64,000 nt of DNA from a bacterium (GTDB lineage: Bacteria; UBA8248). The DNA lies in the NCBI GenBank assembly GCA_965207065.1, contig OZ242260.1, positions 2,810,017-2,874,016 of the forward strand, given 5' to 3'. Shown piece after piece: positions 7,805 through 53,944 of the stretch (the stretch's first letter is position 1; every line of letters begins with the position of its first letter). A program made the translations under genes and the position numbers. The notes below the pieces were generated by a model. It ran no database searches and was not told the origin of the DNA. It saw nothing but the letters and a program-made list of their open reading frames with translations.

Positions 7805-7970
7805 AGTCAGACAGGCTCCCGTGTTTGTCCGAGGTCGCTGTAGGGACAGGTTGTCCCTACGGGCTCACCTCCCGCCGTCATTCCGGCGGCGCCAAATTCC
7901 GAGTGAGGAGAGGTTTTTCAACAACCCCAAGTAGAGGGTTTGTAGGGACAGGCCCCTGTGCCTGTCCGAG
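7805..7970. repeat. cluster of REP-like palindromes (GTAGGGACAGG...CCTGTCCCTAC family)
   Basis: Palindrome gtagggacaggttgtccctac at 7840-7860; gtagggacaggcccctgtgcctgtccga at 7942-7968 recurs identically at 49236. Confidence 0.5.
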
Positions 7971-8232
7971 GCATCCGGACCTCTTCTTGCAAAGCGCAAC
8001 CGCTGGGATGGAATGGAAATACAAATACGGGTGGACATAGAGGTTCATGGCGGCCACGGAGGGCCGCCCCTACGGAAGCTCCACCGCCTTTTGAAACCAA
8101 TCCCCCACAGGGGGCTATTTCCTGTATCTGTGGGTAGTAGAAGGTGCGCGCAGGACTCATCCTCCCGAAACATAAAAAAACCGGGCGCGACTCTCGTCGC
8201 GCCCGGCAGGTAAGCGTTTGTATTTGTTCTGG

Positions 8233-9159
8233 TTACACTTTTTTGTCCTGCGCGCCCATCGCCTCCATCATACCCCAGCGGATGACGGTGCGGCTCTCGA
8301 TGGGCTGGAAGAGCGCCTTCTCGAGAATGAAGCCGAAAAGCCCAAGTACGGAAAGAGCAACCATCATGAACGCGATGTCGAGGTATTCCTGCGCGTCGAA
8401 AATGCCGGCGGAAAGTCCCCAGCGGATGCCCGCGAACGCCTCCGCCCCCACGCCGGCGCGCCAGGCGCGCGCCAATCCGATGCGCAGACCGCTCAGAATC
8501 ATCGGGAGCGAGCCGGGCAGGACGACGGTGCGGAAAATCGTCATCTTGTCCGCGTTCATCGACTGGGCCGCGCGTATCCATACCGGGTTCACGGTTTTCA
8601 CCCCCGTCCAGACCGCCATGGCGATGGGCAGGAACGAGGCGAAGGCCGTGATGACGATGACCGTCTGATCTCCGATGCCCGACCAGATGACGACGATGGG
8701 TGTCCACGCGATGGCCGGAATCGGCAGCAACACGGAGAGAAGCGGCACGAAGAACGATTCCCAGAAAGCGAAGCGTCCCATCAAGATTCCCACGATGGTG
8801 CCCACGATGGCGGCGATAAAGAACGAGAACGGAAGGCGCCACGCGGTGTTGAGCGTATGGAGCAGAATCGGGCTCTCAAAAAGTTTCCAGATCTGATCCA
8901 TGATTCCCAGGTTCGGGTTCTCGGCCAATGCACGGAACAGGGGATCGGTGACGAGTTCCCATGCCCTGAAGACAATCGCGTCCACGGTGGGGAAGAGCCT
9001 GCCCTGGTTGCCCTGGGCCTGCATGGCGGCGACTTGCCAGATGGCGAGGATGACGATGAACGGGTAGATCGGCCTGAGCTTCACCCAAATGGGCGACCTC
9101 ACCTCTTTTTTCTTCTCGTCCAACGATGGAGGAACAGGCGTTGCCTCGGTTGTCTGCAT
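8233..9159 (-). CDS. ABC transporter permease (NitT/TauT family)
   Basis: Multi-TM protein with the binding-protein-dependent permease fold typical of SsuC/TauC. Confidence 0.85.
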   Translation of the reverse strand: MQTTEATPVPPSLDEKKKEVRSPIWVKLRPIYPFIVILAIWQVAAMQAQGNQGRLFPTVDAIVFRAWELVTDPLFRALAENPNLGIMDQIWKLFESPILLHTLNTAWRLPFSFFIAAIVGTIVGILMGRFAFWESFFVPLLSVLLPIPAIAWTPIVVIWSGIGDQTVIVITAFASFLPIAMAVWTGVKTVNPVWIRAAQSMNADKMTIFRTVVLPGSLPMILSGLRIGLARAWRAGVGAEAFAGIRWGLSAGIFDAQEYLDIAFMMVALSVLGLFGFILEKALFQPIESRTVIRWGMMEAMGAQDKKV

Positions 9160-9172
9160 GGATAATTCCTCT

Positions 9173-9919
9173 CTAAAAATCGCGAATCAAATCGTTCACG
9201 TGTTTTTGCAGTTTGATGAACTCGGGCGCGAGGTCGTCGCGGGGCCTGGGTAGATCGACTCTCACGATCTCGCGGATTCTCCCCGGATTCGGTACAAACA
9301 CGACGATCCGGTTCCCGAGATAGACGGCTTCGCTCAGGTTGTGCGTGACATAGAGGATCGTCTTTTTCGTCTTCTGCCATACGTCGACGGTCAACTCCTG
9401 CAACTCCTCGCGCGTCTGGGCGTCGAGCGCGCCGAAGGGCTCGTCCATCAGTAGGATTTGCGGGTCGAACGCCATGGCTCTCGCCACCGCCACGCGCTGG
9501 CGCATACCGCCCGAGAGGTTGTGGGGAAAGAAATCGGCAAATTCCTCGAGGCGGACGAGACGAAGAAACTCGAACGCGATTTCTCTGCGCTCCTTCTCGG
9601 GGAAGTTTCTGATCTCGAGGCCGTATTCCACGTTCTGTCTGGCCGTGCGCCACGGGAAGAGGGCGTATTCCTGGAACACGACGCCCTTGTCGTAGTCCTG
9701 GGTGAGCGTTTTTCCGTCCATGGTGATTGTGCCCGCGGTGATCTCGACGAAGCCGGCGAGCATGTTCAGCAGCGTCGTTTTTCCGCAGCCCGAAAGCCCC
9801 ACGAGGCAGATGAACTCGCCGTCCTCGATGTTGAGGGTCACATCCTCGAGAGCGTGGACTCTTCTTTCGGGTGTGTCATAGATTTTTCTCAAATTCTGAA
9901 TCGATATTTTGGTTACCAT
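9173..9919 (-). CDS. ABC transporter ATP-binding protein (NitT/TauT family)
   Basis: Walker A GLSGCGKTT, signature LSGGMRQR, Walker B LLMDEPFGALD; start set to internal Met (MVTKISIQNL). Confidence 0.9.
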   Translation of the reverse strand: MVTKISIQNLRKIYDTPERRVHALEDVTLNIEDGEFICLVGLSGCGKTTLLNMLAGFVEITAGTITMDGKTLTQDYDKGVVFQEYALFPWRTARQNVEYGLEIRNFPEKERREIAFEFLRLVRLEEFADFFPHNLSGGMRQRVAVARAMAFDPQILLMDEPFGALDAQTREELQELTVDVWQKTKKTILYVTHNLSEAVYLGNRIVVFVPNPGRIREIVRVDLPRPRDDLAPEFIKLQKHVNDLIRDF

Positions 9920-10205
9920 AAATAATAGTATTCCCAATATGATGAAAGACATAGCCTTTCGGGTGAATTGAAATCGAAACGAAGCAGGATGATTCTAGCA
10001 AATACATAACGAGAGAGAAACCGCAATTATACTTTCACGATGATTTGTAATAATCTCATGTTCGTTCATCTATGTTGATGAGTGGCTCACAGCCAAAAAG
10101 TATTGATATTGCTTGAGATTTGGGTGTATCCCCAAGTCATGTGAATATTGGTTTGCTCCGTATGCCGGGATGAATCCCGGGCGGGAATACCGGAAAGGGT
10201 TCTTG

Positions 10206-14947: not shown

Positions 14948-14958
14948 GATGGAGGAAC

Positions 14959-19206: not shown

Positions 19207-19294
19207 TGGCCTGTCCACCGAGGGTGTTGAGAAAGTTCCTTTTCAGGGGATAGAGGGGACGCCCCGCTCGTCTTCCTTCTGCCTTGAAAACCAA

Positions 19295-19460
19295 CCCCCC
19301 CTACCCCCCCTTAACAGGGGGGCAAGAAAAAACAAAAGCTCCCCTACCGGCGGCGGGCGTCGCCTTTTTATACCCCCCTGACAAGGGGGGGTAGGGGGGG
19401 TTGCTTTTCAAGTCGGCGGCCGTCGTTTTACTCCCCTAACAAGGGGGTCGGGGGTTTTTT
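19295..19460. repeat. tandem C-run/G-run hairpin repeats (three units of about 60 bp)
   Basis: Three hairpins cccc-ttaaca-gggg, cccccc-tgacaa-gggggg, cccc-taacaa-gggg, each followed by a related ggcggcgggcgtcgcctttt-type segment. Confidence 0.5.
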
Positions 19461-19530
19461 GTAGGGGTCGCATATATGCGACCCGCCTTTTTCGCCGCCC
19501 GCCATGGGTCGCATGGTATGCGACCCCTAC
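19461..19530. repeat. REP-like inverted pair (gtaggggtcgcatatatgcgaccc / gggtcgcatggtatgcgacccctac)
   Basis: Two near-reverse-complement 24-bp units separated by about 21 bp; same GTAGGG...CCCTAC termini as the other REP-like copies. Confidence 0.5.
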
Positions 19531-19686
19531 ATAACCACCACGATCCGCAAGGGACTATTCCACCAGCCGCCCACCGCGCGGATTGAACCGCCACCGCGCC
19601 GTGTGGTACTCATGGAAGTCTAAAAATCATGTTCTCATGACATTCCAACGGTTGCATTGCGATGATGTCGCCGGGAGGAGGAAGCC

Positions 19687-21712: not shown

Positions 21713-21737
21713 GGGAAGGAGTGGGTTTGTTGATTTC

Positions 21738-21838
21738 GTAGGGGCGGACCTGTGTGTCCGCCCTGCGCGGGTGTCCATAGAGCCACCACGTCATCGAATC
21801 AAACGGTAAACCGGGCGGACACACAGGTCCGCCCCTAC
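21738..21838. repeat. MITE-like element: perfect 26-bp inverted repeats flanking about 49 bp
   Basis: gtaggggcggacctgtgtgtccgccc (21738-21763) and its exact reverse complement gggcggacacacaggtccgcccctac (21813-21838). Confidence 0.55.
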
Positions 21839-22171
21839 GGGTCAATCCCTCAGAAAATCCGTAACTGAATGGCGGCGGAAGCGGATACCCCTGCGGGGGG
21901 AATGACGAATACGCCCCGGACAGGTCGCGACCTGTCCCTACAATTCAAGAGAGACTGCCTATTCCTCGCTCCACGCCTTCTCGTACTTCGCCCGGTGCTC
22001 TTTTGGCAGCGGGGAGGCGAAATACGATATCCCGACGAAGAGCACCGTGTTCACCAGCAGGCCGAAGAAGCCCGGCAACGTCCCGTCTCGGTAAAACCAC
22101 GATCCGTGCAAACCCACACGCCCTTGCATGCGACCTGTTCATGGACTATATTCAGTCCACAGGAGGCGGCC

Positions 22172-22447
22172 ATGACCCTTTCGGACCGGATAAAACCCAT
22201 CAGTTACCTCAAGGCGCACGCCGCGGAAATCGTCCGCACGCTCGGGGAGCGGGGAGAACCCCTGGTGATCACCCAGAACGGGGAAGCCAAGGTGGTCATG
22301 CAGGACATCGACAGCTACGAGCAGATGCAGGAGACGCTCGCCCTGCTCAAGATTCTCGCCCTGGGCGACCGCCAGATTGAAGCCGGGCAGACGCAGCCCG
22401 CTGCCGATGTGACGGCGCGGCTCCGGGAGCGGCTCCCGGCCCGCTGA
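22172..22447 (+). CDS. type II antitoxin, Phd/YefM family
   Basis: About 91 aa (MTLSDRIKPISYLKAHAAEIVRTLGERGEPLVITQNGEAKVVMQDIDSYEQMQETL); aggagg RBS; stop overlaps toxin ATG (TGATG). Confidence 0.8.
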   Translation: MTLSDRIKPISYLKAHAAEIVRTLGERGEPLVITQNGEAKVVMQDIDSYEQMQETLALLKILALGDRQIEAGQTQPAADVTARLRERLPAR

Positions 22448-22773: not shown

Positions 22774-22941
22774 AACACGAACCGAGTGAATTTAAGAGTG
22801 TGCGCGTAGCCGGGCGGTTGAAGGGGAGGATGCCCGGCGAACCCTCCCTCATCGGTCGGGTTCGACTCTTTGACTTCCCGCGCGCCCTAGGCGAGACTGA
22901 TCGAACTGGCTGCTCCACGAGGACAGACCGGAAATAGCCGA

Positions 22942-38583: not shown

Positions 38584-38588
38584 CGACA

Positions 38589-38990: not shown

Positions 38991-39089
38991 ACGAATCGCT
39001 GATCAACTTGTAACGTTGCTCGGTGCAAAACAACTAACTTATAGTACTTAACATTAAACCCGATGAATTAAGCCATATTTCTCAATGAG

Positions 39090-41345
39090 GTGGAAATGAC
39101 AGACTATAAAGTCGCGGGCATGGGCCTTACACGAATCGATGCACCTGACAAAGTAGCTGGCAGTGCAAAATATGCGGCTGACGTTCCATCGAGCCGTTCA
39201 CTCATCGGTCTAGTCTTGGGTAGTCCGCATCCGTATGCGAAAGTACTGAGCGTAGATGCGAGTGAGGCGCGTAAGATACCTGGCGTCCGGGCAGTCGTGA
39301 CGCGAGATGACGCCCCCCGCATTCGATTCGGCGCCAACATCAAAGATCAGAGTTGGTTTGCGCAGGATGGCTTTGTTCGATATGGCGGAGAACCTGTGGC
39401 TGCTGTGGCCGCCGAAGATATGGATGCCGCTCAAGCGGCAATTGAATCGATTCAGGTGGACTATGAAGTTTTAGAGCCAGTGGTAAACGGCTTGGACAGC
39501 CGGGCAGGCGAGGGTCTTGCCGTCCACGAAGATTGGCAAGATTTGGGACTTGGCCCGAATGCAGACAAAAACATTATCGCCCGATTTGAAAAAGAAATTG
39601 GAAATGTCGACGCCGGATACAAAGAGGCGGATCGCATTTTTGAGCACACATTTTCTACACCATTCGTACATGCCGGCTATATTGAGCCTCACGCTTGCGT
39701 TGCCGAGGCAGGTGCAGACGGAAAAGTCACAATCTGGACAACCACGCAGGATGCATGGTCCATCCGGGCGGACGTGGCTGAGGCGCTTGGCCTCCCGGCA
39801 ACTCATGTTCGAGTCATTCCTACTGAAATCGGCGGTGGGTTTGGCGCTAAGCTAAAGAGTACTTATGAGCACCTAGCCGCTCTTTTGGCTTTGAAAACTG
39901 ACCAGTCTGTGCGCATGGAGATGACGCGCGAGGAAGATCATATCGGGGTGAATCCGAGACACCCGCATTTCATTACGATCCGCACAGCGGTGAAGAATGA
40001 TGGTACATTTGTCGCTCGGGAGCTTGATGTCACGATGGATCATGGCGCCTATGGCCGAGGCGCACCGTTTCAATGCAGTAGCAAGATGCTGATGGGTTCA
40101 TGCTCGTATCGTATCCCCAACGTTAGGATTCGTGCTTGTACGGTATATACCAATGGCCCCGTTTGTGGTCCCGTGCGTGCTCCCAGCGGTCCCCAGTACC
40201 ACTTTGCCACTGAAGTGCAGATGGACATCATCGCGCGCGAGATGGGGATTGACCCACTCGAGATAAGGCGAATTAATTCCCTTCGGCCTGGAGATGAGAC
40301 GCTGGCTGGGAAGGAGCCGGCTCCGTCCATGCGTAGTGTGCTTGACTCAACTGCCGTGGAAGGCATGTGGGGAAAGAAAATTGAGGCTAACGGAGAGCTC
40401 GAGGGAGATGGCTGGAAGCTCGGCCGCGGCATAGCTTGCGGATATTGGCCGGGTCCTGGGGAGGCGTCTAGTTGCACGGTTCGCCTGAATCAAGACGGCA
40501 CCGTACAAGTGGTAGCGGGAACGGTGAACCTTACGGGTATGAGCACTTCCATATGCCAACTTGCCGCAGAGGAATTGGGCGTTAGTTTGGATGAAGTGCG
40601 GTACACGAACGGAGATACAGATTCGGTTCCCGAATCATCGGCGGCGTCAGGCAGTAAGGCGACGCGCGCGGTTGGAATGGCAACTTTGAGTGCCGCCCGT
40701 GATTTGCGGAACAAAATCTTGAATGTGGCGAGTATAAAACTCGAAGCCGCTGCGGATGATCTGGTTTTGGAAGATGGACAAGTCAAAGTGGCTTCAGCGC
40801 CCGACCGAGCTATGTCTCTTGCACAGGTGGCCAAGGCGGCGCCTGAAATTCAGGGATTTTTAATCGGACAAGGTGAAAGCGCAAAGCCTCCCCCATGTCC
40901 GATACATACCGGACAGGTGGCGGATGTAGCCGTGAATCCGGAGCTTGGTGAGGTCAGGGTTTTGCGCCTTACATGCGTGCAGGACGTGGGATTTGCCATA
41001 AACCCATTGTCCGTGGTGGGACAAATTGAAGGCGCCATGCTCCAGGGACTCGGATTGGCCCTCATGGAAGAGCAACCCAGGCGCCCGGATGGTAATTTGC
41101 ATGGCGATACCTTCCATGAATATCTGATACCTACCAGCATGGATATGCCTGAATTGAATGCCGTTTTGTATGATAACCCGGCCGAGGGTACGCCCTATGG
41201 GATGCGAGGCGTGGGTGAACCGCCCATTGTGGCGACTGCGGCGGCGATTGTGAATGCCATTCAAGACGCTGTTGGTACACCAGTTTTCTCATTACCTGTT
41301 GGCCCGCATCATATTCGAGAGGCTCTGGCTACGAACAGCGTATAA
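39090..41345 (+). CDS. xanthine dehydrogenase/aldehyde oxidase family molybdopterin-binding subunit
   Basis: 751 aa; a/b hammerhead plus MoCo-binding domains (PHACVAEAG, GGGFGAK, GVGEPPIVATAAAI); no adjacent 2Fe-2S or FAD subunit genes. Confidence 0.85.
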   Translation: MEMTDYKVAGMGLTRIDAPDKVAGSAKYAADVPSSRSLIGLVLGSPHPYAKVLSVDASEARKIPGVRAVVTRDDAPRIRFGANIKDQSWFAQDGFVRYGGEPVAAVAAEDMDAAQAAIESIQVDYEVLEPVVNGLDSRAGEGLAVHEDWQDLGLGPNADKNIIARFEKEIGNVDAGYKEADRIFEHTFSTPFVHAGYIEPHACVAEAGADGKVTIWTTTQDAWSIRADVAEALGLPATHVRVIPTEIGGGFGAKLKSTYEHLAALLALKTDQSVRMEMTREEDHIGVNPRHPHFITIRTAVKNDGTFVARELDVTMDHGAYGRGAPFQCSSKMLMGSCSYRIPNVRIRACTVYTNGPVCGPVRAPSGPQYHFATEVQMDIIAREMGIDPLEIRRINSLRPGDETLAGKEPAPSMRSVLDSTAVEGMWGKKIEANGELEGDGWKLGRGIACGYWPGPGEASSCTVRLNQDGTVQVVAGTVNLTGMSTSICQLAAEELGVSLDEVRYTNGDTDSVPESSAASGSKATRAVGMATLSAARDLRNKILNVASIKLEAAADDLVLEDGQVKVASAPDRAMSLAQVAKAAPEIQGFLIGQGESAKPPPCPIHTGQVADVAVNPELGEVRVLRLTCVQDVGFAINPLSVVGQIEGAMLQGLGLALMEEQPRRPDGNLHGDTFHEYLIPTSMDMPELNAVLYDNPAEGTPYGMRGVGEPPIVATAAAIVNAIQDAVGTPVFSLPVGPHHIREALATNSV

Positions 41346-41376
41346 ATCACACCCGATACTTATCAAGGAGAATCCA

Positions 41377-42042
41377 ATGCCTGTAGACGAAGGAACAAGT
41401 TTGCCGGATAGTTTGGGCGTGACCGATGAGATGATGGCATGTCCTTTACCAAGGTTGCCTTTCGTTGATCCTGACAATGTTCCCGACGAACTCAAGGAAG
41501 AACTCGCTCCGCTCTACGATTGGTCGAAACGGATGTGGGGCACTGTCCCACGCTTTTTACAGCTTTTGGGAAATTCACCCCCTACTGTGGAAGGATGGAT
41601 GTTGCTCGACCAGAAGCTCCGTACGAATCGATTGAAAACGGAGTCCGATTACATTCGACTCATGGAACTGGTCATCGTCAAAACGGCCATTTTGACAGAG
41701 TGCAACAACTGAATCGGGCACAATGTGGAGCTCGGTCGAGCTCTGGGTCTTACGCAGGATCAAATCAACATGTTGGAAGGCGATGATTGGAATGAAAGTG
41801 ATTTGTTCGATGACAAGGAGAAAGCCGTTATCCGTTGGGCGGATGAAGTATCGAAGTTCAGAGCGAAGAACAATGACTTCGCATTCAATGAGATGAAAAA
41901 ATATTTCTCCAATCGGCAGATCGTGGAACTCACTTTTATTTGTGGGATGTGGCATCTTTCGGGAAGACTGGCCGAGGCGCTCCACCTGGTTGTGGAACCA
42001 CCGGGAGGGCGCATCGAATTTCAGGCAGAAGACATGGCGTAA
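41377..42042 (+). CDS. carboxymuconolactone decarboxylase/AhpD-like protein with in-frame UGA (probable selenocysteine) at 41710-41712
   Basis: Track ORFs 41254..41712 and 41725..42042 are in the same frame, separated only by TGA; joined sequence ELVIVKTAILTECNN-U-IGHNVELGRALGLT matches the CMD catalytic Cx2Cx3H motif with U replacing the 2nd Cys; aaggag RBS before ATG 41377. Confidence 0.65.
41726..41745 (+). promoter_or_regulatory. SECIS-like hairpin 14 nt downstream of the in-frame UGA
   Basis: ug-GAGCUC-GGUC-GAGCUC-ug: 6-bp GC-rich stem extendable by two G-U pairs, GGUC tetraloop. Confidence 0.4.
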
Positions 42043-42315
42043 ACACAAGCTTCATCGTCAAATACATTTGTTGAGCGATCCTTGCGTTGTGTCGTTTTGG
42101 CTTGATATACGCGTGCGCATACAAATCATCTCCAACATTTGCTCATCTGAAATTCATCTTTCCGGCTTCCATTTTCGTTTTTTCGACTGACTATTTCATC
42201 CGCCCATGATATGAAACATGTTTTGAACAATGCATTTTTATCGGTTGAAAAATAAGGATATATACATAAAAAAAGAATTGCTTTTTTTGAAGATTTTTGT
42301 ATACTCACGCGCTTT

Positions 42316-42546
42316 GTGATGTCGCCTGTGAATAATCCGGGCAAATTCGAATTGAGCCGCCCAATGAATGAGGAAGAAATGCTCGAGTTCAATGAAAGTG
42401 TTGCTGTCTTGGATCAAGAGTTTTTCGCTGAGTCTGGCGATGTTTTGCCAACGGATGTGGACAATGATGTGTCTGATGACGGTGCAAGTAACGATTTCTC
42501 CTTCTTAAGTGACGGCGAAGGAGGCAATGCTCCTGCTGCTTATTAG
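42316..42546 (+). CDS. small acidic hypothetical protein
   Basis: 76-aa Asp/Glu-rich ORF in an AT-rich segment, followed by a strong terminator; no recognizable domain. Confidence 0.35.
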   Translation: MMSPVNNPGKFELSRPMNEEEMLEFNESVAVLDQEFFAESGDVLPTDVDNDVSDDGASNDFSFLSDGEGGNAPAAY

Positions 42547-42570
42547 CATCCAACAGGAGAAAATGATTCA

Positions 42571-42605
42571 GCGCCCGGTTGAGATTTCAGCCGGGCGTTT
42601 TTTGT
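42571..42605 (+). terminator. Rho-independent terminator
   Basis: Stem CGCCCGG/CCGGGCG with 12-nt loop followed by TTTTTT. Confidence 0.7.
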
Positions 42606-42643
42606 CCTGAAATATCTGTAATATGGAATTTACTTCATAACTA

Positions 42644-43504
42644 TTGGAAGAAATTGTGATGGCGACAGACGAACTGACGATTCATCATGAAGACTTGCGT
42701 GGCCGCATTCTCTCAACGGATTCGATGACCTATTTTGACGAAAGGGTTGAAGAACGGGACGTTCTCATTGGAGGCTCTTACGCCGCACGCATGACGATGG
42801 CGTGGGCAATGCGCCTGGGTGCGAGGGCAATCGTTGCCCATGCGGCAGGAGTAGGAAAAGATGACGCGGGTATAAGCGGTCTCCGGTTGGCCCAGGAATA
42901 TCATGTGCCTGCATTGGCATGTGAGACAATGTCCGCAAGACTCGCCGTTGGAGTATCCGTTTATGAAGGCGAAGTCGGCCATGCGAATCAAGTGGCCCAA
43001 AGTCTCGGTGTTGAAATCGGTCAATCCATTGCTGAAGCTTCGAAAATTTTGCTCGATGCCGATGTGGGCCGGGAAGTGATTGTGGAGGAAAGCCTGGATG
43101 ATAGAATTTATGAGCTAGAGCATTTGCCTGATGGTAACATACGCGCTTCATGGGGAATTCCCGTCCTGCGTTCTATCCAGGAACCAAGGCCCCAAGATGT
43201 TTTTATCCAAGCCTCGCATTGCGGACTTACTCTCGTACCGCATGTCATGAAGCTTAATTTAAAGGGTGTTATTGCCAATGATGCAGGACGGGGGAAAGAT
43301 GACTCCGGCATCGCATCTTTCCCCTACCTGGCGCGGGAGGGGATTGCGGTGGCGGCGGTCGGCGCCATGAGTGCGCGAATTGGTGATGTGATGAGCACCT
43401 GGCAGGAAGGCATTATTTCATGCATGAACGAAGTGGCGGAGAAGCGTGGGGTGCGAGAAGGCATGATGACGCGAGAGGCGGCTATCGCAATGCTCAATGC
43501 GTAG
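42644..43504 (+). CDS. hypothetical protein with internal duplication
   Basis: 286 aa; two homologous halves each containing A.G.GKDD(A/S)GI(S/A) (AAGVGKDDAGISGL / DAGRGKDDSGIASF); no family recognised. Confidence 0.5.
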   Translation: MEEIVMATDELTIHHEDLRGRILSTDSMTYFDERVEERDVLIGGSYAARMTMAWAMRLGARAIVAHAAGVGKDDAGISGLRLAQEYHVPALACETMSARLAVGVSVYEGEVGHANQVAQSLGVEIGQSIAEASKILLDADVGREVIVEESLDDRIYELEHLPDGNIRASWGIPVLRSIQEPRPQDVFIQASHCGLTLVPHVMKLNLKGVIANDAGRGKDDSGIASFPYLAREGIAVAAVGAMSARIGDVMSTWQEGIISCMNEVAEKRGVREGMMTREAAIAMLNA

Positions 43505-43522
43505 GATTTACCAGAAATTATC

Positions 43523-43598
43523 TGGTGGAGGTGAGGGGATTCGAACCCCTGACCTCGTGGGTGCGATCCACGCGCTCTCCCATCTGAGCTACACCCCC
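43523..43598 (-). tRNA. tRNA-Ala (anticodon CGC)
   Basis: Minus-strand cloverleaf GGGGGTG-TA-GCTC-AGATGGG-AGAGC-G-CGTGG-ATCGCAC-CCACG-AGGTC-AGGGG-TTCGAAT-CCCCT-CACCTCC-A-CCA; G3:U70 Ala identity pair present. Confidence 0.9.
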
Positions 43599-43654
43599 AC
43601 AAAAGGAACTTGAAGGTAGGCGAAGGAGCTACGGGTGTCAAGTGAAATAGGGAG

Positions 43655-43944
43655 AGCCGATGAAGAACTCCCCCTAGGAGACTTCACCGGCTCTCGACCT
43701 GCCACAGAGTCCGCCCGTTTCCCCCGCAGCAGGGAGTTGCTTTTGACTAAAGTGGGAGCCAAGGACTCAACCCCTGAGGTATATTATCCTTGGCTCCCGA
43801 TCCTGCTGCAGAGTCCGCCCGTTTCCCCCGCAGCAAGAAAATTCACTGAAATTCCATTTTGGTGAGAGTCGGGGGACAACCCTCCAAGGATTTTCCCCCG
43901 ACTCTCGTCCCGTCGCAGAGTCCGCCCGTTTCCCCCACGACGGG
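43655..43944. repeat. tandem array of alternating hairpins: three copies of a conserved 21-nt loop CAGAGTCCGCCCGTTTCCCCC with variable closing stems, interleaved with three long perfect hairpins
   Basis: Cores at 43705-43725, 43809-43829, 43916-43936; stems cctgcca/cagcagg (imperfect), ctgctg/cagca, cccgtcg/cgacggg; intervening hairpins with 8-, 12- and 13-bp stems. Confidence 0.6.
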
Positions 43945-43953
43945 TAAGCTATA

Positions 43954-46900
43954 TCAAGAACATCCACTCGTCGCGCCACAAGTCATACATTTCAGGCACG
44001 TCCCGTTTCGCACTAAGGTGAACAAACCACAATCGCTGCAAGCTTCCCCCTCATACCCTTTCGCGCGGGCTTCTTCGATGCGTGAATCAATTGCGGAGCT
44101 TGCTTCCGTTATGGGTGTCATCGAAGTTTGGGTGGATTCTGTCTCATAATTCAGACTTATCCGGTCGCTGCGCGGTGCGCTTGCATCCGGTCCCGGGAAT
44201 ATGGTTTGAATCTCTTCTTCTTCCTCGGTATCGAATTCCGGAATCTCTTCCTGGGGGCGCCCGATGGTGTCGCTCCTCAAGTCCTCCGACACGACTTGCG
44301 CCAGGTCGTGGCGACCGAGATATGAAACCGCCAGTTCACGGAAGATGTAATCGATGATGGATGTGCTCATCTTGATGTGCGGGTTGCCCGAGACCATACC
44401 CCCCGGCTCGAATCGTGTGAATACGAAGGCATCCACGAATTCATCCAATGGGACGCCGTGTTGGAGCCCCAGCGAAATTGCGATGGCGAAACAATTCATG
44501 AGGCTTCTGAAGGCAGCGCCTTCTTTGTGCATATCTATGAAAATTTCGCCGATGGAGCCGTCCTCGTACTCACCGGTTCTAAGATATACCTTGTGACCGC
44601 CAATGACGGCTTTTTGTGTGTATCCACCGCGGCGGGTAGGCAACTTGCGTCTTCTGGACTGGTAAATGATCCGGCGCACAATCTGCTGGGCTACATGCAC
44701 GGGGGCACTTTGGGTAGCTGGTTCTTCTTCGCCGATATCACTGAAGAGTTCTGCTTCGCTTTGTGCGGAAAGTGGTTGGCTTAGTTTCGAGCCATCGCGG
44801 TAAATCGCTATGGCTTTGGTCATCCGCTGCCACGATTCGTTGTAGATGTCTAAAATATCTTGAATCGTTGATTCCGCGGGCATGTTGATGGTTTTGCTGA
44901 TGGCGCCAGATATGAAAGGCTGCGCCGCCGCCATCATTCGAACATGGGCCATGGGGCTGATGAAACGCTTGCCTTCTCGTCCGCATTTGCTCGCGCAATC
45001 AAAAACGGCTAGATGCTCTTCTTTTAGGTGGGGCGCCCCCTCAAGCGTCATTTTCCCGCAAACGAAATCATTCGCTTCGCTGATTTGTTCTGGAGTGAAA
45101 CCAATGGCTTCGAGCAGATTCAGGTTCCAGTCGGCTATTTGCGCTTCGCTGAGCCCTAATTGCTCAATGCAGAAGTCATCACCGAGGGAATGTTTGTTGA
45201 AGGCGAACTGGATTTCAAACGCCCCTTCGAGAGCAGCTTCCACTTTTTCCAGAGCCTTGCTCGTAAACCCTTTCTCGTGCAAAGACTCTGGATTGATATG
45301 AGGAGCATTCGTGAGGGTCCCCCGCCCTCGGCAGTAGGCGACGATTTCGCGGATCTCTTCATCGTCATAGCCTAGATGCCGCAAGGCAGCGGGAACGGAT
45401 TGGTTGATGATCTTGAAATAACCGCCTCCGGCCAGTTTTTTGAATTTCACCAAAGCAAAATCCGGCTCGATTCCCGTTGTGTCACAATCCATCACCAAAC
45501 CAATTGTGCCTGTCGGCGCGATGACAGTGGCTTGTGCGTTCCGGTAGCCGTTTCGATAGCCGATGGCCAAAGCATCATCCCACGCCTCACGCGCCGCTTG
45601 GAGAAGATAATGGGGGCAGATTTCCGCAGCGATTCCTGCTGGTGCCTTCGAGAGCATTTCGTATTCTGCCTCCGGCACAGAATAAGCTGCGCGGCGGTGG
45701 TTTCTCAGAACCCGCAACATGTGCTCTTGGTTGTCCTGATACCTTGAGAAAGCGCCCATTTCCCCTGCCATCTCGGCGCTGGTGGCATACGAGCAGCCGG
45801 TCATGATGGAGGTGAGAGCGCCGCACCATGCTTCCGCTTCAAGTGAGTCGTAAGGGATGCCAAGAACCATTAACAAGGTGCCCAGATTGGCGTACCCAAG
45901 TCCTAAAGTTCGATACTCGAATGAGCGTTTGGCTATTTCCGGACTGGGGAATTGCGCCATCAGTACTGAAATTTCGAGGACGACTGTCCATAGGCGAATA
46001 ACATGACGATAGTCTTCTATCTGAAAGTGGTTTTTTTCAGTATCCAAGAATTTTATGAGATTCATCGACGCTAGATTGCATGCGGTATCATCCAAGAACA
46101 TGTATTCTGAGCAAGGATTAGAGCCGTTGATGCGACCATCGGCGGTGCACGTGTGCCAGTCGTTGATGGTTGTGTCAAATTGAAGGCCAGGGTCTGCGCA
46201 ACACCACGCTGCATATCCAATCTGATTCCAAAGTTCTTTCGAACTGACGGAGTCCGCGATTTCGCCGTCAGTGCGCCGTATCAGGTTCCAATCCGAGTTT
46301 TTCTCGGTAGCTTCCATAAAATCATCTGAAACGCGGATGGAATTGTTCGAGTTTTGACCGGAAACCGAGATGTAGGCCTCGCCTTCCCAATTTGTATCGA
46401 GCTCTTCGAACTCGATTTCGGTGATGCCTTGACGTGCAAGTTGGAGAGTCCGATGGATATAATTATCCGGAACGCCGGCGAGTCTTGCGGCCCGAATTGC
46501 TTTGGTGAGTGATGGGTTTTTATCCGGCTGGTACAAGTTGCCATTCAAGCTCAGGTTCTTTCCTTCCAGGCAAGCCCCGAGAATGGCGTTCATGTGCCGG
46601 TTGCACATCTTGCTGCCCGAAACCAGGGCGGCCACTTTCTGTTCTTCGTGCACCTTCCAGTTGATGAATTCCTCGATGTCGGGGTGGTCGATGTCGAGCG
46701 TGACCATTTTCGCCGCGCGCCGAGTGGTGCCGCCCGACTTGATCGCGCCCGCGGCGCGATCCCCAATCTTGAGGAAACTCATGAGGCCGGAGCTTCTTCC
46801 ACCTCCTGAGAGAGATTCCCCCTCCGCTCTCAAATTCGAGAAATTCGTGCCGGTGCCCGAGCCGTATTTGAAAATGCGCGCCTCGCGCGTCCATAAATTC

Positions 46901-47550
46901 ATGATCCCGCCCTCGTTGACGAGATCATCTTTCACCGATTGGATGAAGCACGCATGCGGTTGAGGACGCTCATAGGCGTTGGTGGAGCGGAGTATTTCCC
47001 CGCTTTCGGGATCGCAATAAAAATGTCCCTGGGCGGGGCGCGTGATGCCGTAGGCCCAGTGCAGGCCCGTATTGAACCACTGTGGCGAGTTGGGGGCCGC
47101 CATCTGGCTCGCTAGTATGTATAAAAGCTCCTCATAGAACGCTTTGGCGTCTTTTTCCGCGTGAAAATAACCGTGTTTCCAGCCCCAATAGGTCCAGCAT
47201 CCCGCCAGGCGATGGAAAACGTCCCGGGCGTCGCGCTCGCTTCCGAATCGCTCATCCTCGGGCAGGGACTCAAGTTTTTCCGTGTCCGGCTCCGAGCGCT
47301 GCAGCCATTCGGGCACTCCCTCTTCGGAAACTTTGTTTAAATGTGTGGGGACGCCGGCTTTTCGGAAGTATTTTTGCGCTAGAATGTCGACGGCCACCTG
47401 AGACCAGCTCTCAGGCGCCATGATGTCCTTCGCTTCGAAGACGACCGAGCCGTCCGGGTTGGTGATGCGCGAGGTGCGCGGCGTGAAACCGACCTCGCCG
47501 TACGCGTCATCTCCGGCCCGGGTGAATCGCCTCGTAAACTCCACGCCCAT
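43954..47550 (-). CDS. nrdJ: adenosylcobalamin-dependent ribonucleotide reductase (class II)
   Basis: 1198 aa; class II RNR layout with Cys-rich C-terminal tail ([22 protein letters not shown]); ggagga RBS before ATG. Confidence 0.9.
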
Positions 47551-47614
47551 TCTCCTCCGCTAGGAACGCCCCGCTATGCCGGGGTCATATTTAGTATGGC
47601 GAAATCAAGCGGCA

Positions 47615-48430: not shown

Positions 48431-48796
48431 TCAGTCCTGCTCCAGGAGGACGGCCAGCTTCTCCAGCGCTTCGCCCACCACGCGCGGCGGAGCCTGCGAC
48501 GCGAGGCGCGCCTTTCGCGCCCGCCAGTCGAGGCTCTTCACCTGATCGGCGAGCACCACGCCCGTAACGGGGCCATCGGCGGGGAGCGCCACCTCGAAGG
48601 GATAGCCCTTGGCTCTCGAAGTGACGGGACAGAGGAGCGCCAGACTGCTTTTCTCGTTATAGCTTCGCGGGCTGACGACCAGCGCGGGGCGGCGGCCCGC
48701 CTGCTCATGCCCCGCCTGGGGGGTGAAGGAGAGCCAGACGACGTCGCCCCTGCCCGGAACGTAGTCCGCGTCCGAAACCACCGGTCTCGCTACCAC
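48431..48796 (-). CDS. mazF: type II toxin, MazF/PemK family endoribonuclease
   Basis: PemK/MazF pattern (GDVVWLSFTPQAGHEQAGRRPALVVS, LCPVTS, VVLADQVKSLDWRARKA). Confidence 0.85.
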   Translation of the reverse strand: MVARPVVSDADYVPGRGDVVWLSFTPQAGHEQAGRRPALVVSPRSYNEKSSLALLCPVTSRAKGYPFEVALPADGPVTGVVLADQVKSLDWRARKARLASQAPPRVVGEALEKLAVLLEQD

Positions 48797-49029
48797 GCCT
48801 CAATGCCCTGCGCCGGGCCTGCGTCCTGTTCGGCGTGGAGGTTGTCCGCGTTCATCTCAGCGAGCATGTCGGCCAGCCGGTAGCCTCTCTTGCGCATCAC
48901 CACCCTGTCGCCGCGCGCGCTCATCTCGATGGCCGAACCCTCCCGGACGCCCCATTGCTCGGCGATGGGCTTCGGGATGCGGACGGCCAGGCTGTCGCCC
49001 CACTTTGCGATATGCGATTTCGCGCCCAT
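48790..49029 (-). CDS. mazE: type II antitoxin, MazE/AbrB-SpoVT family
   Basis: 79 aa with swapped-hairpin motif (AKWGDSLAVRIPKPIAEQWGVREGSAIEM); overlaps mazF start. Confidence 0.8.
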   Translation of the reverse strand: MGAKSHIAKWGDSLAVRIPKPIAEQWGVREGSAIEMSARGDRVVMRKRGYRLADMLAEMNADNLHAEQDAGPAQGIEAW

Positions 49030-49235
49030 GCGGTTATCCTCCTCTCAAATATTTATATCTATAATATATATCTATTTGAAGGTGGTGTCGAAGGGAAGGG
49101 ATTTCTTAATACTCACACCAGGCATGTTTGCAATTAATCCCCCCTTGATAAGCATCGACGACCGATATAATAGGTTTACGTTTATGTTCGGTATTCCGGC
49201 GCATGCCGGAATGAAGGTGAAGAACCGCGTCCGCC

Positions 49236-49307
49236 GTAGGGACAGGCCCCTGTGCCTGTCCGAAGCCTCTCTTCCGGCAAGGGACAACCACGGGGGGTTG
49301 TCCCTAC
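49236..49307. repeat. REP-like palindromes
   Basis: 49236-49263 identical to 7942-7968; second palindrome gggacaaccacggggggttgtccctac at 49281-49307. Confidence 0.5.
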
Positions 49308-49517
49308 TGCGAAAACCAAAACTCCTCTTTTCTTGGTCGAGTGTGACTAAAAGGAACCGCATATATGTAGCCTGTGGTCGGAAGGCGAAAAGGGAGGGTC
49401 GCATTATGTGTGTGACAACCCCGAGGAGGGGTTGCCACCTACATACGGTGTGGATATTTCAATCCCGGTCTCGATAATCAACTCTGGCGTCGGTCGACCC
49501 CATCGGCGCGCGCTGAA

Positions 49518-50494: not shown

Positions 50495-50911
50495 TCAAAT
50501 ACTGAGAATGAATTCATCCTTGTACATGGTAAAATGAACTTCCGAAAGAAAATCCATGCCAAGCAATACATCAAAATTTTCAGGCTGGAACGGAAGTAGG
50601 GAAACTTCAATTTCCTTGCCTCGTAGATTGAGCCATGCTCCGGCTCCTCCCCCCGACGCCTCTATTTGATCTCCAATCGGGATGTCGACCTTGACCCTGT
50701 ATTTTTCAGTTTGGATTGGATCCCCGCTGACGGGAATGATGTCGGTAAAACCGATGCTGGACAGTTTTCCTTCATCGACCACCTTCTGAGATATCATGGT
50801 GCCTTGCGCACCCGTATCCAGTATCGCCGGATAGGATTTAGGCTCGGTCCGCGCCGATGGCGGGCTCCCGATCGAAATGGCGACAAACAGGCGGATTTCC
50901 CTGTTTTCCAC
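50495..50911 (-). CDS. retropepsin-like (clan AA) aspartic protease
   Basis: 138 aa with active-site LDTGAQ in a pepsin-like half-barrel-length protein; lower-GC segment. Confidence 0.7.
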   Translation of the reverse strand: MENREIRLFVAISIGSPPSARTEPKSYPAILDTGAQGTMISQKVVDEGKLSSIGFTDIIPVSGDPIQTEKYRVKVDIPIGDQIEASGGGAGAWLNLRGKEIEVSLLPFQPENFDVLLGMDFLSEVHFTMYKDEFILSI

Positions 50912-50949
50912 TCGACCCCGGAATGTAGGGATTTAGAGTTTATTTGACT

Positions 50950-51362: not shown

Positions 51363-51643
51363 TCATTCCCGGAACAAATCGGAGTGCGAACCCGTGCGGA
51401 CGAGGCGCAACTCGTTTCCTCTGATGCGGTAGATCAAGAGCCAGTCCGGCTCGAAGTGGGCTTATTGGGATCCTCTCCATATTCCGCGCAGCGGATGATC
51501 GAGATTGCGCGCAGGCAGCGGCTCCTGGCGGATGAGCGAGTTGAGCAACTCCCGCAGTTTGGTGAGGTCTTTCCCTCGCCTCCGGGCTCTTCTCACGTCG
51601 CGCTTGAATTGCGATGAACCAGTACTTACAGACCCAAATCCTC
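51363..51643 (-). pseudogene. YafQ-like (RelE superfamily) toxin gene interrupted by an in-frame TAA
   Basis: Frame reads ...FKRDVRRARRRGKDLTKLRELLNSLIRQEPLPARNLDHPLRGIWRGSQ-stop-AHFEPDWLLIYRIRGNELRLVRTGSHSDLFRE; stop at 51462-51464. Confidence 0.5.
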
Positions 51644-51883
51644 GAACAACTCCTCGGCGCTGTCGAAGCGCTCCCCCTTGCCCTCGTCGAGTTCTTTCAT
51701 CGCCTTGCGGGTGGCGGGGTTCGGCGCGCGGACGACGAAGGGCAGCCTTCGCTCCTCCGCCACGCGCATCATGAGCAGGCGAATCGCATCCGATACCGAA
51801 AGGCCCATCGCGTTCAGCGCCTCCGTGGCACGGGCCTTGGTCTCGCTGTCGATTCGGGCGCGGACTACAGTATCCGTCGGCAT
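51626..51883 (-). CDS. type II antitoxin, RelB/DinJ family
   Basis: 85 aa with ribbon-helix-helix N-terminus (VVRARIDSETKARATEALNAMGLSVSDAIRLLMMRVA). Confidence 0.75.
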   Translation of the reverse strand: MPTDTVVRARIDSETKARATEALNAMGLSVSDAIRLLMMRVAEERRLPFVVRAPNPATRKAMKELDEGKGERFDSAEELFEDLGL

Positions 51884-52056
51884 TTGGCGTCCTCCTCTCG
51901 TGTAGCCTCATTGTAGCTACATCACCTCGTCCCCCATGTCAAGGGCAATTCCCTGTGGTTTTAGACTGAATCCCTCCCCCCGTTTGGCATCGGCGCGGAA
52001 CCTTGGTCTAATGGTCGCGGTTTTTTTCGTTGAGCGCCTTACCCGAAGGAGGAAGT

Positions 52057-53463
52057 ATGGCGGCGTATGACGTGGCGGTGATCGGAGGGGGGCCTGCGGG
52101 CTATGTGGCGGGCGTGCGCGTCGCGCAGAGCGGCGGAAGCTGCGTGGTCATCGAGCGCGACGAGCTGGGCGGCACCTGCCTGAACTGGGGCTGCATCCCC
52201 AGCAAGAGCTTAATCGCCGCCGCGGAAGTTTTGAGGAACATCAGGAACGCGGACGCCTACGGGGTCGAAGTCACGGGCGAGGTGCGCGCCGACCTCGCCG
52301 CCATGGTCGAGCGCAAGGACAAGATTGTCGCAGGCCTGGTGAAGGGAATCGGCGGGCTGTTCAGGGCCCACGGGGTGGACCACATGGCGGGCGACGCCGA
52401 GATTCTGGAGATGGGCAAGATTTCCGTGCGCGGAAAAGAAGGGGAACACGAGATAGTCGAGGCCGATAAGATCATCATCTGCACCGGTTCCCGGCCCGCG
52501 CAGATTCCCGCCTTTCCCATCGACGGCAATAAAATCATTTCTTCCGAGCAGGCCGTGCACCTGAAATATCTGCCCGAGCGGTTGCTCATCGTCGGCGCGG
52601 GCGTCATCGGCTGTGAGTTCGCGTGTCTCTATAAAGAGCTTGGCGCCAGGGTCGTCATGGTGGAGTTGCTCGACCGGGTCCTGCCGCTGGGTGATGAGGA
52701 TGTCTCGAAACTCATGGCGCGTGAATTAAGAAAACAGAAGATCAAGGTGCGCCTGAATGAGAAGTTAACGGGCGTCTCGCGCAAGGATGATGAGATGGTC
52801 GCGCAATTCGAGGGTTCGGACGAAGAAGAGCGCGCGGACCTCGTGCTCGTCTCCGTGGGCCGGACGATGAACACCGACGGCCTGGGTCTCGAGCGAATCG
52901 GCGTCGAACTCGGCCCGCGCGGCGAGATCAAGGTGAACGAGATGATGGAGACGAACGTGGCGGGAGTCTACGCGGCGGGCGACGTGGTGGGCGAGCCCAT
53001 GCTCGCGCACGTGGCCTCGGCGGAAGGGGTCGCTGCGGCGGAAAACGCCATGGGCGCGGAGATACGGATGGATTACCGCGCGATTCCGGCGGGCATCTTC
53101 ACGCATCCCGAGATCGGCGTCGTCGGCATGGCCGAACACGAGGCGGAGAAGGCGGGTCACGCGGTGCGCGTGGGCAAGTTCTCGGTTCGCGCTCTCGGCA
53201 AGGCGCAGGCCGAACGCGCGCTGGAAGGCGAGGTGAAGGTCATCGCCGACGCGGGGGATGACGCCATTCTGGGCGTGCACATCGTGGGCGCCCACGCCGC
53301 CGACATCGTGCACGAGGCCGCCGTCGCCATGCAGCACCGCGTAACCGCCTCCGACCTGGCCGGCACCATCCACTCCCACCCCACGCTTTCGGAAGCCGTC
53401 ATGGAGGCGGCATTGGACGTGCACGGCGAGGCCATCCACGCCCCGCCGAGGAAACGTTCATAA
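52057..53463 (+). CDS. lpdA: dihydrolipoyl dehydrogenase
   Basis: FAD motif VIGGGPAGY, redox-active disulfide GGTCLNWGCIPSK, NAD motif and C-terminal interface His (HSHPTLSE). Confidence 0.9.
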   Translation: MAAYDVAVIGGGPAGYVAGVRVAQSGGSCVVIERDELGGTCLNWGCIPSKSLIAAAEVLRNIRNADAYGVEVTGEVRADLAAMVERKDKIVAGLVKGIGGLFRAHGVDHMAGDAEILEMGKISVRGKEGEHEIVEADKIIICTGSRPAQIPAFPIDGNKIISSEQAVHLKYLPERLLIVGAGVIGCEFACLYKELGARVVMVELLDRVLPLGDEDVSKLMARELRKQKIKVRLNEKLTGVSRKDDEMVAQFEGSDEEERADLVLVSVGRTMNTDGLGLERIGVELGPRGEIKVNEMMETNVAGVYAAGDVVGEPMLAHVASAEGVAAAENAMGAEIRMDYRAIPAGIFTHPEIGVVGMAEHEAEKAGHAVRVGKFSVRALGKAQAERALEGEVKVIADAGDDAILGVHIVGAHAADIVHEAAVAMQHRVTASDLAGTIHSHPTLSEAVMEAALDVHGEAIHAPPRKRS

Positions 53464-53549
53464 GGGGTTGTTGACCCTCCCCCGAATCGGAAGTGTTCAC
53501 CGTCATTCCGGTGTCGGTCCCGACTGAAGAAGGGGGGCTGCGGAATCTT

Positions 53550-53577
53550 GTAGGGACAGGTCGCGACCTGTCCCTAC
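53550..53577. repeat. REP-like perfect palindrome gtagggacaggtcgcgacctgtccctac
   Basis: Same core as 21918-21941 (ggacaggtcgcgacctgtccctac); further palindromes follow to about 53720. Confidence 0.5.
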
Positions 53578-53944
53578 GGGTAATAAAGTGACTCGGCGTA
53601 TGCAGTTGACCGGGGAAAGAGGAGACAACATTCCTCCCTTGTAGAGCACTCAACAACCACTCCCCCCTTGAGGGGGTCGGGCTTCCCGAGGGGAAAGCCC
53701 GACAGAGGCCGAGTCCTTTGGACGAAGGCCGATGTGGTGGGGGGTGACTCGCGTTAATTGTGCATTCCGAATCATACCCCCCACCGACTCGCTTTCGGGC
53801 TTGCGCCCTCAGCTCTTCGTCGGTCTACCCGAGGAGGATAGACCGACCCTCAAGGGGGGAGTGAAATTTAGCGCGCTCCTTTTGTGGACTTTTTCAACAA
53901 CCCCTATAGAGGCCCTCGAAACAGCTTGGCGGATTCCGTGGCGG

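Follow-up and report, generated by a model that had tools for sequence, protein, structure and literature searches.

GTAG-tagged repetitive extragenic palindromic (REP) sequences comprise 24 families in several phyla, whose units are stem-loops of 20-40 bp with a 6-13-bp stem and an unpaired terminal GTAG (PMC3733652). Their stems have G-C pairs at the bottom and fall into subfamilies that differ by complementary changes; moreover, the units form head-outward (HH) homo- or heterodimers 20-100 bp apart, lie in gaps between convergent or unidirectional genes, and are found with genes of REP-associated tyrosine transposases (RAYTs) in 'REPtrons' (PMC3733652). Here, a family of GTAG-tagged intergenic hairpins is analysed in a 64,000-nt stretch of bacterial DNA (contig OZ242260.1, positions 2,810,017 to 2,874,016; hereafter the window, whose first letter is position 1). 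The palindromes are very probably GTAG-tagged REPs of a Nitrospinota lineage, several of them arranged as REP doublets forming hairpins (REPINs), and would be maintained in trans by an enzyme of the RayT family.

TnpA_REP subclass 2.4, which corresponds to RAYT group 4 of Bertels, is patchily distributed across phyla, mainly Cyanobacteria and Bacteroidetes, and its REPs are of two types: 'canonical long' REPs, whose stem has three G-C pairs at the bottom, and 'double foot' REPs, which carry GT[AG]G and C[TC]AC at their opposite ends (PMC6006769). For the E. coli REP, Messing et al. 2012 (PMC3479197; structure 4ER8, cited in PMC6006769) describe a 5′ GTAG guide next to an imperfect palindrome, read as single-stranded DNA (ssDNA) by the monomeric Y1 HUH enzyme TnpA_REP.

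The window resembles the superfamily of Di Nocera 2013 in its tagged stem-loops, several families per genome, HH dimers, gap preference and proposed RAYT partner; in particular, stem-loop size, GTAG tag, complementary stem changes and intergenic HH placement agree within a small sample, whereas Nitrospinota is not among the phyla listed there (PMC3733652). Both REP types of subclass 2.4 are represented, with double-foot units at 53550-53577 and 7840-7860 and GGG bottoms in some stems; however, several window stems start with GGA, which gives two G-C pairs instead of three. The E. coli REPs and bacterial interspersed mosaic elements (BIMEs) also have the 5′ GTAG tag beside a palindrome, but their stems are longer and bulged and BIMEs contain sites for integration host factor (IHF) or gyrase, none of which were seen in the window. 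In Pseudomonas fluorescens SBW25, Bertels and Rainey reportedly described in 2011 REPINs composed of two inverted REPs and a short spacer that form one long hairpin, and these are said to belong to RAYT group 3, equivalent to subclass 2.5. The window dimers, known from sequence comparison, are alike in that the inverted dimer is the conserved unit, and differ in REP sequence and RAYT group. In IS200/IS605 insertion sequences (IS608, ISDra2), subterminal hairpins and a short guide or cleavage motif are read by a Y1 HUH transposase; there, the hairpins bound an element carrying tnpA with or without tnpB, whereas the window has isolated hairpins or dimers of 24-100 nt without cargo.

Anatomy of the tagged hairpins

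The window contains 11 hairpins of the form GTAG, 8-bp G/C-rich stem and 4-6-nt loop, 10 of them perfect; their measured ranges are 7-9 bp for the stem, 3-6 nt for the loop and 21-28 nt in total. The core scan required GTAG directly followed by a perfect hairpin, and one further relic came from a separate relaxed hairpin scan. Related loci (labelled L) were collected with GTAGGGACAGG-N4-8-CCTGTCC from representative genomes, where at least 119 loci matched, and with a degenerate class I pattern from metagenomes, where at least 120 contigs matched (G+C content 0.39-0.71).

Three architectural classes occur in the window and in the related loci. Class I consists of GTAG, an 8-bp stem, the loop C-Y-S-Y-G-T and the return stem, with stems GGACAGGC, GGACAACC, GGGCGGAC and GGGCGGCC. 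Class II has GTAG, a stem GGG(T/C)CGCA, the loop TATA or a variant of it, and the return stem. The perfect palindrome GTAGGGACAGGTCGCGACCTGTCCCTAC forms class III and has a GTAG foot on each strand. Wherever a copy is double-footed, its GTAG is paired with CTAC at the 3′ end. The stem bottom is GGG in GGGCGGAC, GGGTCGCA and GGGCGGCC, while GGACAGGC and GGACAACC have only two G-C pairs. The elements are:

7803-7832, plus strand: probable degenerate class I REP relic, GTAG TCAGACAGGC tcccgt GTTTGTCCGA (low confidence)
7840-7860, unstranded: miniature double-foot REP, GTAGGGACA-ggt-TGTCCCTAC
7942-7967, plus strand: class I REP, single hairpin, GTAG GGACAGGC ccctgt GCCTGTCC
8048-8073, minus strand: class I REP, single hairpin, stem GGGCGGCC, loop ctccgt
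19461-19530, unstranded: class II HH dimer, REPIN-like, two inverted hairpins with a 21-nt spacer
19461-19484, plus strand: left arm of the 19461-19530 dimer, GTAG GGGTCGCA tata TGCGACCC
19506-19530, minus strand: right arm of the 19461-19530 dimer, GTAG GGGTCGCAT acc ATGCGACCC
21738-21838, unstranded: class I HH homodimer, REPIN-like, GTAG GGGCGGAC ctgtgt GTCCGCCC twice (21738-21763, plus; 21813-21838, minus), 49-nt spacer
21918-21941, minus strand: class III REP, one foot, single hairpin, GTAG GGACAGGT cgcg ACCTGTCC
49236-49307, unstranded: class I HH heterodimer, REPIN-like, 20-nt spacer
49236-49261, plus strand: arm of the 49236-49307 dimer, GTAG GGACAGGC ccctgt GCCTGTCC
49282-49307, minus strand: arm of the 49236-49307 dimer, GTAG GGACAACC ccccgt GGTTGTCC
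53550-53577, unstranded: class III double-foot REP, perfect palindrome GTAGGGACAGGTCGCGACCTGTCCCTAC, between convergent genes

An earlier reading of the same letters (the first-pass annotation) had proposed a dispersed palindrome family, and all of its elements were found at the coordinates it cited. The identity it had noted between distant copies is exact, as 7942-7969 and 49236-49263 agree at 28 of 28 positions (GTAGGGACAGGCCCCTGTGCCTGTCCGA) and have different flanks; similarly, the core of 21918-21941 that it had called identical to 53550-53577 corresponds to a 24/24 match of 21918-21941 to 53554-53577. Only the 3′ end of 21918-21941 has CCCTAC, which makes this element a one-footed version of the palindrome at 53550-53577. 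The palindrome given as 49281-49307 is the inverted partner (49282-49307) of 49236-49261. The perfect inverted repeats at 21738-21838 were also recovered, with 100% complementary arms, but the arms are 27 nt long (21737-21839), not 26. Two elements had been overlooked: the copy at 8048-8073 (minus), which differs by one mismatch from GTAGGGGCGGCCCTCCGTGGCCGCCC, the commonest variant among the metagenome matches listed, and the relic at 7803-7832 (plus), whose loop tcccgt fits the class I loop CYSYGT and whose stem contains wobble pairs and mismatches.

There are four head-outward pairs, three of which (19461-19530, 21738-21838 and 49236-49307) fold as single hairpins with z-scores from -6 to -9. 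In particular, calculated folding energies are -26.1 kcal/mol for 19461-19530 (z = -7.1), -41.8 kcal/mol for 21738-21838 (z = -8.9) and -26.5 kcal/mol for 49236-49307 (z = -6.0). These three behave as REPINs, since they have a one-hairpin fold and their whole dimers are kept in relatives; the fourth pair, 7942-7967 and 8048-8073, is 81 nt apart, folds as two independent hairpins and is not a REPIN. As ssDNA, the miniature double-foot unit at 7840-7860 folds with -9.5 kcal/mol (z = -5.5), and the class III palindrome at 53550-53577 has a fold of -13.2 kcal/mol (z = -5.5).

Stem covariation and excess over chance

To calculate stem covariation, sequences of the window and of all loci were selected by head and loop alone (GTAG-N8-CYSYGT-N8). 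There are 256 such instances, 86 of them distinct; 72 of the 86 pair at 7 or more of the 8 stem positions, and they have 26 different stems. Nine of the 86 were obvious chance matches and were dropped. Across the remaining 77 class I sequences, 94.2% of stem cells are paired, a percentage that the dropping slightly inflates, compared to 80.7 ± 0.9% in shuffles and 32-52% when the partner is slid. Double-sided changes occur at 6 of the 8 stem pairs, amounting to 102 cells compared to 33.7 ± 9.1. These compensatory changes on both sides of the stem indicate that the hairpin structure is conserved while the stem sequence drifts, and subfamilies differing by complementary stem changes, as in the definition of GTAG-tagged REPs, are present. 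Neither GTAG nor the loop positions C13, G17 and T18 vary, an invariance that is partly built in by the search pattern.

The tagged hairpins are also more frequent than expected. GTAGGG is found 30 times in the window, with 14.5 ± 3.7 expected. Counting both strands, the window has 228 perfect hairpins whose stem is 7 bp or longer, and GTAG is the commonest 4-mer directly 5′ of them (10 of 228; the next unrelated head precedes 5, and the shifted register TAGG precedes 11). The 10 GTAG-headed perfect hairpins compare to 0.09 ± 0.29, with a maximum of 1, in 100 first-order Markov simulations. Further, the degenerate class I pattern has 6 matches with up to three mismatches, compared to 0.00 in shuffles.

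Copies in relatives and in other phyla

The closest relative among the matches listed is the metagenome-assembled genome (MAG) RHO1_bin_79, with 86% DNA identity. Its locus (L093) is collinear with window positions 2016-8775 at 83-90% identity; the MAG is assigned to Nitrospinota, and this collinearity places the window in the same phylum. A tblastx search for further syntenic relatives found none beyond L093. The related assemblies are JAPPHK01 (RHO1_bin_79), JAJEJD01, OZ241875.1, OZ244799.1 and CBDBEV01/OZ241996.1. The MAG names RHO1, COS4 and SB0662 presumably denote sponge metagenomes, and a literature search on repeats in sponge Nitrospinota found nothing relevant. Some MAGs of the group comprising L039, L041, L084 and L094 are labelled only 'bacterium'.

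Every related locus that was read holds REP copies. In the convergent gap that L093 and the window share by orthology, two gene-end terminators are conserved and the set of REPs is not the same: a class II dimer and a single class I copy in L093, but two class I copies and a double-foot copy in the window. REP copies thus turn over between related genomes. Whole dimers are retained elsewhere. The complete class II unit of 19461-19530 is conserved in four loci (L094, L093, L039 and L084), and the class II dimers of relatives have a partly conserved spacer of ~21 nt. The AGGC/AACC class I heterodimer at 49236-49307 is also present in L041, L094 and L039, where genomic copies have spacers of ~7-22 nt, and the RayT genes of L249 and L187 contain it in frame; overall, spacers range from ~7 to ~80 nt across homologous dimers.

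Identical sequences extend beyond the lineage. The exact class III 24-mer GTAGGGACAGGTCGCGACCTGTCC was found in 42 of the genome matches listed, with hosts in Bacteroidota (Pontibacter, Chitinophagaceae and others), Patescibacteria and Nitrospinota and a locus G+C content of 0.32-0.67; by our own arithmetic, chance alone would give ~0.004 matches in 596 Gb. The GGACAGGC stem is found with closely related CYSYGT loops in class I copies on complete chromosomes of Latescibacterota and Arenicellales, and with a related loop on a Nitrospirales chromosome; class I copies outside the lineage have an identity to the window of up to 31-37 nt. Altogether, identical REPs of 24-31 nt (the class III palindrome, or class I with stem GGACAGGC) recur across phyla of very different G+C content, at the following loci:

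Nitrospinota group: L017, L041, L073
Patescibacteria: L006, L028
Bacteroidota: L013, L022, L057
Latescibacterota: L045, L047
Arenicellales: L079, L100

As judged from these sequences, the cross-phylum identity suggests that REP-RayT systems may have spread horizontally or that the enzyme may impose a very strong constraint on its targets. That REP subfamilies, and even whole dimers, are common to different phyla bears on the view of REP-RAYT systems as strictly vertically inherited. Copies confined to the window and attributable to local duplication had been named as the outcome that would speak against a dispersed family; instead, copies are present in related MAGs, other phyla and metagenomes, and their unrelated flanks exclude segmental or local duplication.

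One locus in a Bacteroidetes MAG (L070, 1886-2173) contains four tandem 88-bp units, each with a class III REP and conserved flanks. This array is a tandemly amplified REP cluster, not a CRISPR array.

RayT genes beside the same hairpins

RayT genes were sought with a Y-motif regular expression, phmmer with two queries, and a custom hidden Markov model (HMM) of five RayT-like sequences, applied to six-frame open reading frames (ORFs) from the window and 119 genome loci; one phmmer query, used only as an auxiliary, was an approximate E. coli RayT sequence. Class III hairpins lie beside or inside RayT-like (Y1_Tnp-type) ORFs in 5 of the 119 genome loci listed (L066, L101, L057, L040 and L098), and the L040 protein passes the Pfam Y1_Tnp threshold. 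Class I hairpins flank or sit inside RayT ORFs in 6 of the 120 metagenome contigs listed (L188, L187, L239, L172, L224 and L236). For example, the rayT gene of L188 has a double-foot palindrome on each side and an in-frame HH dimer within it, while that of L224 has REP arrays on either side. The proteins beside the hairpins belong to a very large family whose best NCBIfam match is the REP-associated tyrosine transposase, and JGI labels many of them 'REP element-mobilizing transposase RayT'.

In several RayT genes, REP dimers lie in frame just after the HUH motif, as in ...MPNHIHGIVVLVGAAPRGRPD...GQARGPAPTLSLPDVVHRFK; a REP-encoded peptide within 25 residues after this motif was found in 101 of the best 120 matches to the L188 protein, a count partly biased by the words of the query. 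The internal dimer of L249 is 78% identical to window 49236-49307 over 77 nt. Such in-gene REP insertions were already reported for TnpA_REP subclass 2.4 (PMC6006769). RayT genes with in-frame REP dimers, besides those of proteins P0121-P0296, are:

L187, 340-1113
L188, 494-1222
L241, 3338-4159
L249, 277-1011

Proposed maintenance in trans

By analogy to E. coli and Pseudomonas, the hairpins would be recognised as ssDNA by a Y1 HUH member of the TnpA_REP/RayT family, probably of subclass 2.4. Its gene would be located elsewhere in the genome. The enzyme would read the GTAG tag together with the stem, cut and rejoin DNA beside the hairpin, and by acting in trans disseminate and maintain the elements, with copies surviving mainly 3′ of genes, where insertion would do no harm. 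The first-pass annotation had compared the palindromes to REP elements of the RAYT-mobilised kind; that comparison gains support from the GTAG-REP anatomy, the REP types of subclass 2.4 and the RayT genes beside the same hairpins elsewhere. It had also called for a search for a RAYT gene; RayT genes stand beside the hairpins in other organisms, but none was found in the window or in ~120 kb of relatives' DNA.

Several observations weigh against this reading. No RayT or Y1_Tnp ORF was found by phmmer or the custom HMM in the 64-kb window or in 15 relatives' loci (~120 kb), and protein-database searches, including chimeric queries with in-frame window REP peptides, returned only RayTs of other lineages. 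In the contigs of ACAACC-type peptide candidates (P0125, P0129 and P0241), similarity to the window was limited to the REPs themselves. The link to a transposase in this genome is therefore an inference. Moreover, the evidence on copy number and on a cognate enzyme is limited to the 64-kb window and relatives' loci, neither a transposition event nor an empty site or a target motif was reconstructed, and some stems start with GGA in place of the GGG of canonical subclass 2.4 REPs. Extrapolated from the 11 copies in 64 kb, the genome might contain a few hundred of them.

New in the window are the host lineage, as GTAG REP/REPIN families are extended to Nitrospinota, and apparently the sequence subfamilies. 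As every feature was already described at the level of kind, the finding is correct but ordinary. For annotation, the hairpins explain spurious ORFs (for example, 49072-49404) and long intergenic regions, and can be masked as REPs.

Genomic setting and alternative explanations

Gaps were assigned by combining a rough gene map with Pfam. Intergenic DNA makes up 16% of the window, and all 11 copies lie inside it, in five gaps:

7663-8232, convergent: NMT1-like binding protein and ABC permease
19207-19686: RibD_C-domain gene, then E1-alpha
21713-22186: E1-beta, then Phd/ParE
49030-49517, minus strand throughout: 3′ of a DUF5131 gene and 5′ of mazEF
53464-53944, convergent: dihydrolipoamide-dehydrogenase-like gene and class IV aminotransferase

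REPs are present in 2 of the 6 convergent and 3 of the 26 unidirectional gaps and in none of the 6 divergent ones, though the sample is small. The placement between convergent or unrelated genes that had been proposed from the letters alone agrees with these gaps, two convergent and three unidirectional, and, as to the positional bias that had been suggested as a check, copies are intergenic only and in convergent or unidirectional gaps only.

A location 3′ of genes, in convergent or unidirectional gaps, also fits hairpins that function for the host, as transcription terminators or attenuators, as stabilisers of mRNA 3′ ends, or as sites bound by nucleoid proteins or gyrase, kept by selection without a transposase; such roles of REPs are documented in other bacteria (PMC3733652), and the hairpin at 19465-19484 has a T-rich tail and a terminator-like score. 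However, this is the only copy followed by a T-run, and the other 10 of 11 have none. The two convergent genes of gap 7663-8232 own strong intrinsic terminators (7683-7732 and 8180-8207; one is a perfect 22-bp stem with T-runs and the other a 12-bp stem followed by T7) that are conserved in L093, while the REPs lie between them and are not conserved. Further, identical 24-28-nt sequences are shared between loci, and between phyla, that are unrelated, and they lie within or beside RayT genes; this pattern is the signature of a mobile repeat. Host function in place of mobility is unlikely, although the two views do not fully exclude each other, as REPs are often co-opted.

The inverted dimers could instead be miniature inverted-repeat transposable elements (MITEs), whose terminal inverted repeats derive by deletion from DDE-type insertion sequences and are not handled by a Y1 enzyme. 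Three units do have 24-27-nt inverted arms around a short spacer, and a different 130-bp inverted-repeat element lies nearby at 19283-19412. But each arm is itself a GTAG-tagged hairpin, partnerless single hairpins and double-foot palindromes of the same sequence exist, and the spacer varies from ~7 to ~80 nt in homologous dimers; flanking direct repeats were not seen in the window element sequences, and no DDE transposase lies beside the elements in the window. Altogether, a MITE origin is highly improbable.

Two of the five gaps adjoin toxin-antitoxin (TA) modules, Phd/ParE (22187-22773) and MazEF (48431-49029), in agreement with the first-pass annotation, which had placed several palindromes beside such modules. 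The palindromes could be operators of these modules or of other local regulators, but the copy nearest to Phd (21918-21941) lies ~245 bp upstream of its start, the same sequence is found in many phyla and in the gap between the dihydrolipoamide-dehydrogenase-like and aminotransferase genes, with no TA module nearby, and no TA module adjoins the other three gaps; an operator role is scarcely credible. Finally, chance or local duplication could be entertained only because the sample of 11 copies is small, and its probability is negligible given 10 observed hairpins compared to 0.09 expected, unrelated flanks, and copies in other genomes and metagenomes.

Two other identities were tried and rejected. 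As a class, the units are not Rho-independent terminators, whose definition only 19465-19484 satisfies, the true terminators at 7683-7732 and 8180-8207 being separate; neither are they a CRISPR array, as the spacing is irregular, copies are inverted, and the scanned neighbours include no cas genes. At the gathering threshold, Rfam 15 reports only two tRNAs in the window and no family for the hairpins.

RayT in type I restriction-modification operons

In 6 of 9 independent contexts, the RayT gene of the clade that accompanies class I hairpins is part of a type I restriction-modification (R-M) operon, typically arranged as hsdM-hsdS-rhuM-rayT-hsdR or hsdS-rayT; the sample is small and has no control set, but its loci were not selected by context. 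The six contexts, in most of which start and stop codons overlap or abut, are:

L188, 491-4311: hsdM-rhuM-hsdS-rayT
L240, 2300-10307: RhuM, DUF1016, rayT, hsdS, hsdR
L244/245 (Methylococcus; L244, 772-8823): hsdM-hsdS-rhuM-rayT-hsdR
L246 (Nitrospira MAG), 5023-6627: N6_Mtase fragment 5′ of rayT
L247/248 (L247, 2977-8087): hsdS, two further genes (one DUF3644), then rayT
L250, 922-3071: hsdS directly 5′ of rayT

The other three contexts are a RhuM and an AAA_15 gene (L241-243), a RAMP gene (L249) and a non-defence neighbourhood (L239). PADLOC gave no match for the RayT clade. RayT in type I R-M operons is mentioned in neither PMC3733652 nor PMC6006769 (Quentin et al. 2018), from the latter of which the word 'restriction' is absent, and a literature search on RayT in defence or R-M islands found nothing relevant.

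It is conceivable, though doubtful, that the enzyme maintaining the REPs and REPINs is a subclass-2.4 RayT that forms a regular part of type I R-M or defence operons, typically hsdM-hsdS-(rhuM)-rayT-hsdR, and not a free-standing domesticated transposase. If so, the GTAG hairpins and their spread across phyla (Nitrospinota, Latescibacterota, an Arenicellales genome, Bacteroidota and Patescibacteria) would be bound up with how defence islands function or move, with possible links being an ssDNA-hairpin nuclease working alongside R-M, or REP families exchanged with R-M cassettes among bacteria sharing a habitat. A general placement of this kind would link REP biology to defence islands.

Neighbouring sequences

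The 21738-21838 dimer begins 26 nt 3′ of the E1-beta stop codon, and the 49236-49307 dimer is placed between mazE and a DUF5131 gene. Within gap 7663-8232, an imperfect inverted repeat (7760-7788 and 7899-7927; GGGTTGTTGAAAAC... and ...GTTTTTCAACAACCC) encloses the REP relic and the miniature double-foot REP, and its left arm is conserved in L093. Two ORFs cross the 49236-49307 dimer, 49072-49404 (minus, 110 codons) and 48890-49477 (plus, 195 codons); given their poor codon-position GC pattern, both are probably artefacts made by the repeat. Type II TA modules or their remnants comprise Phd/ParE (22187-22773), MazE/MazF (48431-49029) and RelB (51626-51883), and an ORF resembling a retroviral-type aspartyl protease lies at 50495-50911.

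The block 32800-47600 has a G+C content of 0.49-0.54, compared to ~0.60, and a weaker third-position GC bias. It contains an RND efflux pair, alcohol dehydrogenase, QueF, an aldehyde-oxidase/xanthine-dehydrogenase-like gene, class II ribonucleotide reductase and a tRNA-Ala (43523-43598), and has no intergenic GTAG hairpins; the block may be acquired DNA.

A second, unrelated repeat family is present at 19283-19412, where a 130-bp element with a MITE-like look has 48-nt inverted arms (CTTGAAAACCAA-C7-TA-C7-TTAACA-G6-CAAGAAAA); at least nine full or half copies occur in L020, with further copies in L021, L039 and L109. Lastly, the small ORF 22942-23274 has no Pfam match and, together with its flanks (22868-23406), is 70-78% identical in DNA sequence to the related loci L063 and L094.

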